Origin: Escherichia coli
GTDB lineage: Bacteria > Pseudomonadota > Gammaproteobacteria > Enterobacterales > Enterobacteriaceae
DNA: 64,000 nt
NCBI RefSeq assembly: GCF_017348835.2
Contig: NZ_CP071375.1
Direction: 5' to 3' (one strand)
Shown here piece by piece: positions 6,964 through 21,611 of the stretch (positions within the stretch are counted from its first letter, which is position 1; each line of letters starts with the position of its first letter). The notes beneath the pieces are model-generated. The model did no database searches. It saw only the letters and a program-made list of their open reading frames with translations, and was not told where the DNA came from. Both the position numbers and the translations under genes were made by a program.

Positions 6964-7017
6964 GCCGGATGCGTGCCAACCGTAGGTCGGATAAGACGCG
7001 GCAGCGTCGCATCCGAC
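6964..7017. repeat. REP (repetitive extragenic palindrome) element
   Basis: Imperfect palindrome gtaggtcggataagacgcggcagcgtcgcatccgac, typical of E. coli REP units, 3' of ubiF. Confidence 0.7.
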
Positions 7018-7073
7018 ATTGAAGGATAAGACGTGTCAACATCGCATTCGACATTGAATGAACGCAGAAAAGC

Positions 7074-7100
7074 AAAAAGCTCGCCGAAGCGAGCTTTTTT
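7074..7100. terminator. bidirectional intrinsic terminator between ubiF and the tRNA operon
   Basis: Hairpin gctcgc-cgaa-gcgagc flanked by an A-run on one side and a T6 run on the other. Confidence 0.7.
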
Positions 7101-7638: not shown

Positions 7639-7723
7639 TGGTGCGGGAGGCGAGACTTGAACTCGCACACCTTGCGGCGCCAGAACCTAAATCTGGTGCG
7701 TCTACCAATTTCGCCACTCCCGC
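7639..7723 (-). tRNA. leuW: tRNA-Leu (anticodon UAG)
   Basis: 85-nt class II tRNA with a long variable arm; reverse complement GCGGGAGTGGCGAAATTGGTAGACGCACCAGATTTAGGTTCTGG...CACCA. Confidence 0.93.
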
Positions 7724-7731
7724 AAAAAAGA

Positions 7732-7808
7732 TGGTGGCTACGACGGGATTCGAACCTGTGACCCCATCATTATGAGTGATGTGCTCTAACCAACTGAGCT
7801 ACGTAGCC
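7732..7808 (-). tRNA. metT: tRNA-Met (elongator, anticodon CAU)
   Basis: 77-nt sequence identical to metU; first gene of the operon. Confidence 0.95.
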
Positions 7809-7848
7809 ATCTTTTTTTTCGCGATACCTTATCGGCGTTGCGGGGCGC

Positions 7849-7877
7849 ATTATGCGTATAGAGCCTTGCAGCGTCAA
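7849..7877 (-). promoter_or_regulatory. sigma70 promoter of the metT-leuW-glnUW-metU-glnVX tRNA operon
   Basis: On the minus strand: TTGACG (-35), 17-bp spacer, CATAAT (-10), then a GC-rich discriminator GCGCCCCGC about 35 nt upstream of the mature metT 5' end; A/T-rich UP-like sequence upstream. Confidence 0.6.
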
Positions 7878-8139
7878 CCTCTTTTTCAAGGAAAATTGCT
7901 CGAAAGTGACTGTTTGGTTAGGTTGCGAACAGCGTGGCGCTATATTCGTCAATTATTGTTTACTTTGTGTTTTTTCCCACCCTACAGCCATTCTTTTGTC
8001 ATACAGGATGAAATTCGGAATTTAACAATAGTGGTGGGAAATTAATCTATGAAATACTGGCCTACAGTGATGAGTTGTCAAACAGTGATGTGGCAAACCC
8101 GGAACATTTCCTTACTGCATATCAGAATCAACAAGCACC

Positions 8140-8177
8140 TCAATAACTGAAACAGCCCCGGATTTCACCGGGGCTGT
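8140..8177 (-). terminator. probable asnB terminator hairpin
   Basis: 10-bp stem acagccccgg / ccggggctgt 11 bp downstream of the asnB stop, followed on the transcript by a U-rich stretch. Confidence 0.55.
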
Positions 8178-8187
8178 TTCGCATTTC

Positions 8188-9852
8188 TTACTTATACGCC
8201 GACTGGTGAACACCAACCGCGCGACCAGACGGATCGTCCATTTTCTTGAACGCTTCATCCCATTCGATCGCTTTAGCGGAAGAACACGCGACGGAAGGAC
8301 CGCCCGGCACGCACTCAGCGGCACTCGGAAGCGGGAATAGTTCTTCAAAGATCTCCCGGTACAGATACGCTTCTTTTGAGGTCGGTGTGTTGTACGGGAA
8401 GCGGAAGCGGGCAGTTTCCAGCTGTTGATCAGAAACCTGCTGCGCCGCCACTTCTTTCAGGGTGTCGATCCAACTGTAACCGACGCCATCGGAGAACTGC
8501 TCTTTCTGCCGCCAGGCCACGCTTGCGGGCAGGTATGACTCAAAACATTCACGCAGGATGTGTTTTTCCATCTTGCCGTTACCGCACATTTTATCCTGCG
8601 GGTTAATGCGCATCGCCACGTCGAGGAATTTCTTGTCGAGGAACGGAACGCGTGCTTCCACGCCCCAGGCTGACATCGCTTTGTTGGCACGGGCGCAGTC
8701 ATACATATGCAGGGCCAGCAGTTTACGCACCGTCTCTTCATGCAGTTCTTTGGCATTCGGTGCTTTGTGGAAGTAAAGATAACCGCCAAACACTTCATCA
8801 GAACCTTCACCGGACAGCACCATTTTAATGCCCATCGCTTTGATCTTACGCGACATTAAATACATCGGTGTTGAAGCGCGAATAGTGGTCACATCATAGG
8901 TTTCGATGTGGTAAATCACGTCGCGGATGGCGTCCAGACCTTCCTGTACAGTGAAGTGAATTTCATGATGCACAGTGCCCAGATGGTTTGCCACTTCCTG
9001 GGCTGCTTTCAGATCCGGTGAACCCGGCAGACCTACAGCAAAGGAGTGTAACTGCGGCCACCAGGCTTCAGAGCGTTCCTGATCTTCCACGCGACGGGCT
9101 GCGTATTTCTTGGTGATAGCGGAAATAATTGAGGAATCCAGACCACCAGAAAGCAGCACACCGTAAGGCACATCAGACATCAGATGGCTTTTAACGGAAT
9201 CTTCCAGAGCCTGACGCAGCTCGTTTTTGTCGGTGACATTATCTTTCACCGCATCGTAGTCGAACCAGTCGCGATGATAATAAGAACGGATTTCGCCGTC
9301 CTGACTCCACAAATAGCTCCCCGCCGGGAACTCTTTAATCGTGCGGCATACCGGCACGAGGGCTTTCATTTCTGAGGCCACATACAGCTGACCATGTTCG
9401 TCATAGCCCATATACAGTGGGATGATCCCCAGATGGTCGCGACCAATCAGGTAGGCATCTTTTTCGCTGTCGTACAGGGCAAAGGCAAACATGCCCTGCA
9501 AGTCGTCGAGAAATTCCGGCCCTTTTTCCTGATACAGCGCGAGGATCACTTCACAGTCAGACCCTGTCTGGAACTGATAACGATCGCCGTATTCAGCGCG
9601 CAATGCCTGGTGATTGTAGATTTCACCGTTTACCGCCAGTACGTGGGTTTTTTGTTGGTTGTAGAGAGGTTGCGCCCCCGCGTTAACGTCAACAATTGAC
9701 AGACGTTCGTGGGCGAGAATGGCGTTATCACTGGCATAAATACCGGACCAGTCCGGGCCACGATGACGCATCAGGCGTGACAGCTCGAGTGCTTTCTTAC
9801 GCAGCTCAACTGCGTCTGTTTTGATATCGAATACGCCAAAAATTGAACACAT
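8188..9852 (-). CDS. asnB: asparagine synthetase B (glutamine-hydrolysing)
   Basis: The ORF track gives 581 aa; the conserved N-terminus MCSIFGVFD, with the catalytic Cys2 of class II amidotransferases, starts at ATG 9852, giving 554 aa. Confidence 0.95.
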   Translation of the reverse strand: MCSIFGVFDIKTDAVELRKKALELSRLMRHRGPDWSGIYASDNAILAHERLSIVDVNAGAQPLYNQQKTHVLAVNGEIYNHQALRAEYGDRYQFQTGSDCEVILALYQEKGPEFLDDLQGMFAFALYDSEKDAYLIGRDHLGIIPLYMGYDEHGQLYVASEMKALVPVCRTIKEFPAGSYLWSQDGEIRSYYHRDWFDYDAVKDNVTDKNELRQALEDSVKSHLMSDVPYGVLLSGGLDSSIISAITKKYAARRVEDQERSEAWWPQLHSFAVGLPGSPDLKAAQEVANHLGTVHHEIHFTVQEGLDAIRDVIYHIETYDVTTIRASTPMYLMSRKIKAMGIKMVLSGEGSDEVFGGYLYFHKAPNAKELHEETVRKLLALHMYDCARANKAMSAWGVEARVPFLDKKFLDVAMRINPQDKMCGNGKMEKHILRECFESYLPASVAWRQKEQFSDGVGYSWIDTLKEVAAQQVSDQQLETARFRFPYNTPTSKEAYLYREIFEELFPLPSAAECVPGGPSVACSSAKAIEWDEAFKKMDDPSGRAVGVHQSAYK

Positions 9853-14618: not shown

Positions 14619-16565
14619 ATGAATATTTTAGGTTTTTTCCAGCGACTCGGTAGGGCGTTACAGCTCCCTATCGCGGTGCTGCCGGTGGCGGCACTGTTGC
14701 TGCGATTCGGTCAGCCAGATTTACTTAACGTTGCGTTTATTGCCCAGGCGGGCGGTGCGATTTTTGATAACCTCGCATTAATCTTCGCCATCGGTGTGGC
14801 ATCCAGCTGGTCGAAAGACAGCGCAGGTGCGGCGGCGCTGGCGGGTGCGGTAGGTTACTTTGTGTTAACCAAAGCGATGGTGACCATCAACCCAGAAATT
14901 AACATGGGTGTACTGGCGGGTATCATTACCGGTCTGGTTGGTGGCGCAGCCTATAACCGTTGGTCCGATATTAAACTGCCGGACTTCCTGAGCTTCTTCG
15001 GCGGCAAACGCTTTGTGCCGATCGCCACCGGCTTCTTCTGCCTGGTGCTGGCGGCCATTTTTGGTTACGTCTGGCCGCCGGTACAGCACGCTATCCATGC
15101 AGGCGGCGAGTGGATCGTTTCTGCAGGCGCGCTGGGTTCCGGTATCTTTGGTTTCATCAACCGTCTGCTGATCCCAACCGGTCTGCATCAGGTACTGAAC
15201 ACCATCGCCTGGTTCCAGATTGGTGAATTCACCAACGCGGCGGGTACGGTTTTCCACGGTGACATCAACCGCTTCTATGCCGGTGACGGCACCGCGGGGA
15301 TGTTCATGTCCGGCTTCTTCCCGATCATGATGTTCGGTCTGCCGGGTGCGGCGCTGGCGATGTACTTCGCAGCACCGAAAGAGCGTCGTCCGATGGTTGG
15401 CGGGATGCTGCTTTCTGTTGCTGTTACTGCGTTCCTGACCGGTGTGACTGAGCCGCTGGAATTCCTGTTCATGTTCCTTGCTCCGCTGCTGTACCTCCTG
15501 CACGCACTGCTGACCGGTATCAGCCTGTTTGTGGCAACGCTGCTGGGTATCCATGCCGGCTTCTCTTTCTCTGCGGGGGCTATCGACTACGCGTTGATGT
15601 ATAACCTGCCGGCCGCCAGCCAGAACGTCTGGATGCTGCTGGTGATGGGCGTTATCTTCTTCGCTATCTACTTCGTGGTGTTCAGTTTGGTTATCCGCAT
15701 GTTCAACCTGAAAACGCCGGGTCGTGAAGATAAAGAAGACGAGATCGTTACTGAAGAAGCCAACAGCAACACTGAAGAAGGTCTCAATCAACTGGCGACC
15801 AACTATATTGCTGCGGTTGGCGGCACTGACAACCTGAAAGCAATTGACGCCTGTATCACCCGTCTGCGCCTTACAGTGGCTGACTCTGCCCGCGTTAACG
15901 ATACGATGTGTAAACGTCTGGGTGCTTCTGGTGTAGTAAAACTGAACAAACAGACTATTCAGGTGATTGTTGGCGCGAAAGCAGAATCCATCGGCGATGC
16001 GATGAAGAAAGTCGTTGCCCGTGGCCCGGTAGCAGCTGCCTCTGCTGAAGCAACTCCGGCAACTGCCGCTCCTGTAGCAAAACCGCAGGCTGTACCAAAC
16101 GCGGTATCTATCGCGGAGCTGGTATCGCCGATTACCGGTGATGTCGTGGCACTGGATCAGGTTCCTGACGAAGCATTCGCCAGCAAAGCGGTGGGTGACG
16201 GTGTGGCGGTGAAACCGACAGATAAAATCGTCGTATCACCAGCCGCAGGGACAATCGTGAAAATCTTCAACACCAACCACGCGTTCTGTCTGGAAACCGA
16301 AAAAGGCGCGGAGATTGTCGTTCACATGGGTATCGACACCGTAGCGCTGGAAGGTAAAGGCTTTAAACGTCTGGTGGAAGAGGGCGCGCAGGTAAGCGCA
16401 GGGCAACCGATTCTGGAAATGGATCTGGATTACCTGAACGCTAACGCCCGTTCGATGATTAGCCCGGTGGTTTGCAGCAATATCGACGATTTCAGTGGCT
16501 TGATCATTAAAGCTCAGGGCCATGTTGTGGCGGGTCAAACACCGCTGTATGAAATCAAAAAGTAA
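14619..16565 (+). CDS. nagE: PTS N-acetylglucosamine-specific EIICBA component
   Basis: 648-aa ORF with a polytopic EIIC domain, EIIB (CITRLR) and a C-terminal EIIA; recognised as NagE. Confidence 0.95.
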   Translation: MNILGFFQRLGRALQLPIAVLPVAALLLRFGQPDLLNVAFIAQAGGAIFDNLALIFAIGVASSWSKDSAGAAALAGAVGYFVLTKAMVTINPEINMGVLAGIITGLVGGAAYNRWSDIKLPDFLSFFGGKRFVPIATGFFCLVLAAIFGYVWPPVQHAIHAGGEWIVSAGALGSGIFGFINRLLIPTGLHQVLNTIAWFQIGEFTNAAGTVFHGDINRFYAGDGTAGMFMSGFFPIMMFGLPGAALAMYFAAPKERRPMVGGMLLSVAVTAFLTGVTEPLEFLFMFLAPLLYLLHALLTGISLFVATLLGIHAGFSFSAGAIDYALMYNLPAASQNVWMLLVMGVIFFAIYFVVFSLVIRMFNLKTPGREDKEDEIVTEEANSNTEEGLNQLATNYIAAVGGTDNLKAIDACITRLRLTVADSARVNDTMCKRLGASGVVKLNKQTIQVIVGAKAESIGDAMKKVVARGPVAAASAEATPATAAPVAKPQAVPNAVSIAELVSPITGDVVALDQVPDEAFASKAVGDGVAVKPTDKIVVSPAAGTIVKIFNTNHAFCLETEKGAEIVVHMGIDTVALEGKGFKRLVEEGAQVSAGQPILEMDLDYLNANARSMISPVVCSNIDDFSGLIIKAQGHVVAGQTPLYEIKK

Positions 16566-21402: not shown

Positions 21403-21611
21403 TATAGAATTGCCACGCCTAAATGAAAACCACAAGTCCCTGGCAAATATTGTTAATAAAAACGTGGCACAGCTTACATTTACAACAGCAAGGCCACTTG
21501 AACACCGGGACATTGTACAGGTACAACAGCAAAAGTTACAAATTTGTAGCAATTATTTTGATTGGCATTATCTATTAATACGGCGTAGACATGAGTCTAC
21601 GCCGCATCACA

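Follow-up and report, generated by a model that had tools for sequence, protein, structure and literature searches.

Results

Organisation of the metT locus

The window, the whole stretch of 64,000 nucleotides of Escherichia coli DNA (contig NZ_CP071375.1) that was analysed, contains a cluster of seven tRNA genes between asnB and ubiF. ARAGORN identifies them in the order Met, Leu(UAG), Gln(UUG) twice, Met and Gln(CUG) twice, in agreement with Rfam, and places the mature metT 5′ end at position 7808. The cluster and its flanking terminators are the following:

7808–7105, minus strand: seven tRNA genes (ARAGORN, Rfam, RefSeq annotation)
7064–7099, minus strand: intrinsic terminator of the operon, made up of a stem of 11 pairs (7099–7074) and a tail rich in T
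8148–8181, minus strand: asnB terminator hairpin, a 14-pair stem with 9 G–C pairs, directly after the asnB stop codon

The seven tRNAs in this order, from asnB to ubiF, with one transcript and one terminator, constitute the operon metT-leuW-glnUW-metU-glnVX. A preliminary description made from the sequence alone had named a seven-tRNA operon at this locus, which is borne out by ARAGORN and Rfam and by published Northern blots: probes placed between the region upstream of metT and the terminator that follows glnX detect a full-length polycistronic transcript comprising all seven tRNAs (PMC2241853), so that the cluster represents one transcription unit. Its Rho-independent terminator has been described by Mohanty and Kushner 2008 (PMC2241853). 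The operon is essential, and a plasmid copy under the natural promoter complements (PMC11480407). On the upstream side, the asnB terminator hairpin insulates the tRNA promoter against upstream transcription.

Window coordinates correspond to NC_000913.3 coordinates minus 689325. The interval 7700–8200 equals K-12 MG1655 except for the T-run of the metT-leuW spacer (7725–7730), which is one T shorter, and the sequence from the asnB stop codon to metT is identical. The K-12 metT (supB-E) operon shares the promoter without a difference, the gene order and the terminator, and its published primary 5′ end maps here. The region is matched in 5424 of 5426 complete E. coli genomes, with asnB, the seven tRNAs and ubiF annotated. 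In the asnB-metT spacer nothing other than tRNAs scored above the Rfam threshold, and the list of open reading frames holds mechanical ORFs only. The interval from the operon terminator to ubiF contains a REP-like repeat (6985–7053), for which Rfam gives a match to naRNA4 below threshold on either strand.

Core promoter elements upstream of metT

The region immediately upstream of the mature tRNA contains the following elements:

7877–7872, minus strand: −35 hexamer TTGACG, 5/6 to consensus
7871–7855, minus strand: spacer of 17 nt, without an extended −10 TG
7854–7849, minus strand: −10 hexamer CATAAT, 5/6 to consensus
7848–7840, minus strand: G+C-rich discriminator GCGCCCCGC, with C as the second base after the −10 hexamer
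7841–7843, minus strand: transcription start, a dRNA-seq cluster on C7843/C7842, with G7841 possible
7809–7842, minus strand: 5′ leader of 33–35 nt, the part of the primary transcript removed by RNase P

By the consensus scanner the two hexamers match the sigma-70 consensus at 10/12 positions; they lie close to TTGACA and TATAAT, and their separation of 17 bp is within the 16–18 bp range of a sigma-70 promoter. The sequence following the −10 hexamer, GCGCCCCG, is G+C at 8/8 positions with a C at 7847 and fits a discriminator of the stringent type. The 16-bp spacer that is typical of rrn P1, tyrT and leuV, and not obligatory, is replaced here by one of 17 bp. The preliminary description had listed TTGACG, a 17-bp spacer, CATAAT and a GC-rich discriminator within 7841–7880; each of these elements is present in that interval, and the strand, which it had left unstated, is the minus strand. 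Its distance of about 35 nt to metT is a fair summary, with the discriminator lying 32–40 nt and the end of the −10 hexamer 41 nt upstream of the mature 5′ end.

Position of the transcription start

The 5′ end mapping that had been proposed as a check on this promoter is available in a published dRNA-seq table and agrees with it. Table S2 of Romero et al. 2014 (PMC4681348) contains a high-confidence Class I start, that is, a TAP-enriched end at the leading edge of transcription, on the reverse strand at U00096.2 696390–696391. Conversion from U00096.2 to NC_000913.3 with an offset of 777, calibrated on the MG1655 sequence, places this end at 7842–7843 of the window, on two C residues at positions 6 and 7 after the −10 hexamer. 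The primary end is therefore found 6–7 nt downstream of the −10 hexamer, inside the 5–9 nt interval of a sigma-70 start, with an uncertainty of 1 nt. Neighbouring forward-strand starts fall on purines almost only with the offset of 777; reverse-strand starts fit slightly better with 776. The tyrT start of the same table, at 1286889–1286890, adopts the same register as metT: at both promoters, which have identical discriminators, the dRNA-seq cluster covers two C residues just upstream of a G. The G located 1–2 nt downstream of the tabulated tyrT start is the classical, biochemically determined start of that promoter. Because of the better fit of offset 776 and this shift at tyrT, the register is uncertain by 1 nt and we give the start as 7841–7843. 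The cluster on C residues reflects either a 1-nt coordinate shift on the reverse strand or real initiation at C; C residues would be unusual initiating nucleotides.

In the table of Romero et al. 2014 the metT start carries no RegulonDB-overlap flag (PMC4681348). An in vitro precursor from the same laboratory was designed to begin at CGCAACGCC, window position 7842 (PMC3985628). The start table of Kim et al. 2012 (PMC3415461) and the SMRT-Cappable-seq table (PMC6131387) have no entry for the metT promoter. The Romero table further contains a Class II start at U00096.2 696311, which corresponds to window position 7763 on the minus strand, position 46 of the mature metT tRNA, just after a CATAAT in the metT anticodon loop; this end more likely stems from a fragment of the tRNA than from a promoter.

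Comparison with mapped stable-RNA promoters

The comparison with mapped stable-RNA promoters that the preliminary description had suggested was performed with promoters taken from NC_000913.3:

tyrT: −35 TTTACA, spacer 16 bp, −10 TATGAT, followed by GCGCCCCGC
rrnB P1: −35 TTGTCA, spacer 16 bp, −10 TATAAT, followed by GCGCCACC
leuV: −35 TTGACG, spacer 16 bp, −10 TAGAAT, followed by GCGCCTCC
thrU: −35 TTGCAT, spacer 17 bp, −10 TAGAAT, followed by GCGCGC
argX: −35 TAGACA, spacer 17 bp, −10 TATTAT, followed by CCACCCCCGCAACGG

The metT promoter resembles tyrT, the classical stringent, Fis-activated tRNA promoter. Its nine-base discriminator is identical to that of metT, the motif CCGATAAGG recurs in the early leader of both, and the start registers agree; tyrT differs in its hexamers (TTTACA and TATGAT) and its 16-bp spacer. 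With rrnB P1 the metT promoter shares a near-consensus −10 hexamer and the adjoining GCGCC, in which C is the second base after the hexamer, as well as an A/T-rich stretch upstream of the −35 hexamer. The rrnB P1 promoter differs by its 16-bp spacer, by TTGTCA, by initiation 9 nt downstream of the −10 hexamer and by a much more A/T-rich UP element. The leuQPV promoter (leuV) has the same −35 hexamer TTGACG and a discriminator, GCGCCTCC, that contains GCGCC. The 17-bp spacer is found again at thrU, where GCGCGC has GCGC in common with metT, and at argX, which shares CCCCGCAACG around the start. All three differ from metT in their −10 hexamers and leaders, and the argX discriminator begins with CCACCC rather than GCGC. 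The wording of a textbook stringent-control signature is accurate for the sequence, the nine bases being those of tyrT and GCGCC recurring in rrnB P1 and leuV.

Conservation across Enterobacterales and E. coli

One genome per species was scanned with a pattern comprising the metT 3′ end, a gap and the leuW 5′ end; since this pattern lies wholly within tRNA genes, the retrieval of loci is independent of the promoter sequence. The scan returned 120 Enterobacterales loci from genera including Salmonella, Klebsiella, Serratia, Edwardsiella, Hafnia, Budvicia, Proteus, Morganella, Sodalis and Hamiltonella, and promoters were counted for those 115 gene pairs whose upstream sequence comprised 160 nt or more. 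TTGAC(G/T), 17 nt, (C/G)ATAAT and a discriminator beginning with GCGC are present at 110 of these 115 loci, which settles the promoter observation as real, elements and exact spacing together. Among the 110 related loci the spacer is 17 nt long without exception, the −35 hexamer is TTGACG in 105 and TTGACT in 5, and both the −10 hexamer CATAAT and the discriminator GCGCCCCGC are identical in 108. The sequence of the spacer mostly differs between genera at constant length. Fixed elements separated by a drifting spacer are a classical footprint of function.

The exceptions are internal duplicate copies, Enterobacter mori with CATAAG, and Fukatsuia with a one-base insertion. A further exception, the secondary endosymbiont of the psyllid Ctenarytaina eucalypti, whose genome is reduced, retains TTGACG and the 17-nt spacing; its −10 hexamer is TAAAAT and its discriminator A/T-rich, the G+C-rich form having apparently been lost. 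Budvicia diplopodorum carries a second metT-leuW copy with a diverged promoter consisting of TTGACG, 17 nt, GATAAT and GCGCTGCGC.

At the level of the species, 5424 of the 5426 complete E. coli genomes contain the 152-nt promoter region, and 4871 genomes carry it with at least 99% identity. In the most divergent E. coli sequences sampled the core promoter is unchanged, and variation is located in the A-run of the leader and further upstream. This A-run (7812–7819) comprises 6–9 A among E. coli strains.

Chance expectation of the signature

Between 6500 and 10000 the scanner detects a single promoter-like site, where shuffled sequences contain on average 3.0 sites of 9/12 or better; the hexamer match alone is therefore within chance expectation. 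Over the 64-kb window and both strands there are three sites at 10/12, compared to 7.8 in first-order Markov simulations of the window, so that strong sigma-70-like sequences are depleted (3 versus ~7.8 simulated). Only the metT site among the three is followed by at least 7 G+C in 8 bases. The simulated mean for this full signature (10/12 plus at least 7/8 G+C) is 0.37 per window, and extrapolation from this value yields an estimated ~2 × 10−4 for a 60-nt target upstream of the tRNA cluster on the correct strand. The other two 10/12 sites are found at 14899 on the plus strand and at 21429 on the minus strand, the latter upstream of fur and coinciding with starts 709940–709947 of the dRNA-seq table.

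UP-like tract and candidate Fis sites

The upstream half of the promoter contains three further features, an A-tract and two candidate Fis sites, which are absent from the preliminary description. Positions are given relative to +1 = 7842:

7880–7899, minus strand: UP-element-like A/T-rich stretch, with a T-tract at 7895–7892 and an A-tract at 7886–7882
7916–7930, centre 7923 (−81), minus strand: candidate Fis site I, GTTCGCAACCTAACC, a perfect match to GNNYRNNWNNYRNNC
7936–7950, centre 7943 (−101), minus strand: candidate Fis site II, GACGAATATAGCGCC, G-N13-C with an A/T-rich centre

GAAAAAG (7887–7881) lies directly upstream of the −35 hexamer and is preceded by TTTT (7895–7892). Promoters assisted by an UP element have an A/T-rich sequence from −38 to −59 with an A-tract at about −41 to −46, and this stretch fits that description. 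Counted by hand, the segment from −46 to −38, TGAAAAAGA, matches the proximal UP subsite at 7/9 positions, with 7/11 for the distal subsite; the proximal consensus is reportedly AAAAAARNR (Estrem et al. 1999). Over 34 genera, A7884–7882 is invariant and A7886–7885 at least 90% conserved.

For Fis sites we applied a simple rule, G-N13-C with no more than one mismatch to GNNYRNNWNNYRNNC, which at metT gives the perfect match centred at −81. In tyrT it yields 15-mers at −71, −91 and −122 and in rrnB P1 at −71, −102 and −143, the Fis positions of the literature, with −71 as the usual proximal site. The two promoters therefore act as positive controls. All three promoters have such 15-mers upstream, and those of tyrT are spaced by ~20 bp as at metT; the metT positions (−81 and −101) differ from those of either promoter. 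A degenerate consensus of this kind yields ~0.9 matches per 120 nt by chance, so that the weight of the candidates rests on positional conservation; the centre of site I is also rather G+C-rich. In 30 of 34 genera a 15-mer with no more than one mismatch occupies exactly the −81 position of site I, with differing internal sequence; G7930 is invariant and C7916 at least 90% conserved. Measured from the −35 hexamer, G-N13-C is present at exactly −101 in 32 of the 34 genera, and in 10 of these it deviates from GNNYRNNWNNYRNNC at one position or none. The conserved upstream bases cluster in TG and CA dinucleotides spaced by 15 bp, G7930...C7916 and G7950...C7936. We regard the two 15-mers, spaced by 20 bp and located off the usual −71, as candidate Fis sites.

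Leader and early transcribed region

Conservation extends into the transcript: the first ~17 transcribed bases, 7842–7826 (CGCAACGCCGAT(G)AAGGT), show at least 90% identity over 34 genera. Part of this region is found again in other stable-RNA operons, CCGATAAGG being common to the early leaders of metT and tyrT and CCCCGCAACG to the start regions of metT and argX. A leader hairpin was considered and rejected, as its predicted fold of −6.6 kcal mol−1 (z-score −1.5) is not better than that of shuffles; covariation for this hairpin amounted to a single compensatory change in 31 distinct leaders. It is doubtful that the conserved bases form a separate, undescribed element, which might act as a signal tuning promoter escape or the response to ppGpp and DksA, or as a leader motif for a processing enzyme, and with which the −81/−101 geometry could share an order-wide design.

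Discussion

Proposed mechanism and regulation

At rrnB P1, the C two bases after the −10 hexamer makes poor contact with sigma region 1.2, and the open complex is short-lived. At metT, RNA polymerase holoenzyme recognises TTGACG and CATAAT at their optimal 17-bp spacing and initiates 6–8 nt after the −10 hexamer, at 7841–7843. The 33–35-nt leader and the seven tRNAs are synthesized as one precursor, ending at the terminator (7099–7064), that is processed by RNase P and RNase E. With its high G+C content and a C in place of G at the second base after the −10 hexamer, the metT discriminator should contact sigma region 1.2 poorly and, as a result of this poor contact, give rise to a short-lived open complex. 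Output would decrease when ppGpp and DksA rise and increase with growth rate and with the initiating NTP, as for tyrT and rrnB P1. The A-tract upstream of the −35 hexamer is expected to bind the C-terminal domain of the alpha subunit, and the 15-mers at −81 and −101 would bind Fis, raising activity in early exponential growth.

For the metT promoter we infer control by ppGpp/DksA, growth rate, the UP tract and Fis from these signatures and by analogy to tyrT, rrnB P1 and argX; the growth-rate and ppGpp regulation expected in the preliminary description likewise rests on analogy. In the literature, tRNA promoters count as targets of stringent control, which is proposed to act on them in a similar way as on rrnB P1 (PMC5137449), and the same paper refers to Rowley et al. 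1993 for the promoter of a leucyl-tRNA operon being inhibited stringently in vivo. The 17-bp spacer and the two hexamers at 5/6 each are nearer to consensus than those of rrn P1 and could lead to a longer-lived open complex and weaker regulation. Mainly on account of this spacer and these strong hexamers, we allow a small chance of regulation being weaker here than at rrn P1.

Alternative interpretations

The same features could belong to an essentially strong, constitutive promoter, in which the discriminator is conserved for another reason, such as supercoiling sensitivity or a function of the leader RNA, while stringent and growth-rate control is weak or exerted elsewhere. The optimal 17-bp spacer and near-consensus hexamers, compared to the 16-bp spacers of rrnB P1, tyrT and leuV, would fit this interpretation, and conservation reaching ~17 nt into the transcript means that contacts with sigma region 1.2 cannot explain all of it. 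A preprint puts the discriminator forward as a factor that determines how promoters respond to supercoiling, and published effects of DksA at the argX tRNA promoter are condition-dependent and opposing. Against this interpretation, spacers of 17 bp are also found at argX and thrU, and inhibition of argX by the stringent response has been reported (PMC5137449). The metT discriminator, moreover, is that of tyrT and shares with rrnB P1 both GCGCC and the C two bases after the −10 hexamer. We consider constitutive expression unlikely.

It is highly unlikely that the end at 7842–7843 is a processing site on a transcript that originates upstream, either by read-through from asnB, which is encoded upstream on the same strand, or from a promoter within 7880–8150. 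Weaker TTGAC-like sequences do occur in this interval, for instance TTGACG at 7952–7947 and TTGACA at 8080–8075, but the former is not conserved as a hexamer and the scanner finds no further promoter-like site on the same strand. The mapped end is TAP-enriched and at the leading edge of transcription (Class I), no other start is tabulated between it and asnB (PMC4681348), and the strong 14-pair terminator after asnB stands against read-through. Chance resemblance to the promoter consensus without function, for which matches of at least 9/12 are expected ~3 times in 3.5 kb, is refuted by position, strand, discriminator, mapped 5′ end and order-wide conservation together, and retains next to no probability.

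The site is thus very probably the already known sigma-70 promoter of the operon metT-leuW-glnUW-metU-glnVX, with stringent, growth-rate and Fis control being the mode of regulation that its signatures suggest.

Significance of the metT promoter

The metT operon was described decades ago, and its promoter is not a new discovery; the original papers are said to be those of Nakajima et al. (Cell 1981; J Biol Chem 1982). We agree with the preliminary description in regarding it as an ordinary promoter. Our analysis adds a coordinate annotation of the start site, the UP-like tract, the two candidate Fis sites and both terminators, as well as a comparative footprint in which the core, the exact spacing and the discriminator are fixed across Enterobacterales. 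Annotation and order-wide footprint together render this locus a good reference example for annotating stable-RNA promoters. All E. coli genes that encode elongator tRNA-Met, tRNA-Leu(UAG) or either of the two tRNA-Gln species belong to this operon, and its promoter therefore sets the supply of four essential tRNAs.
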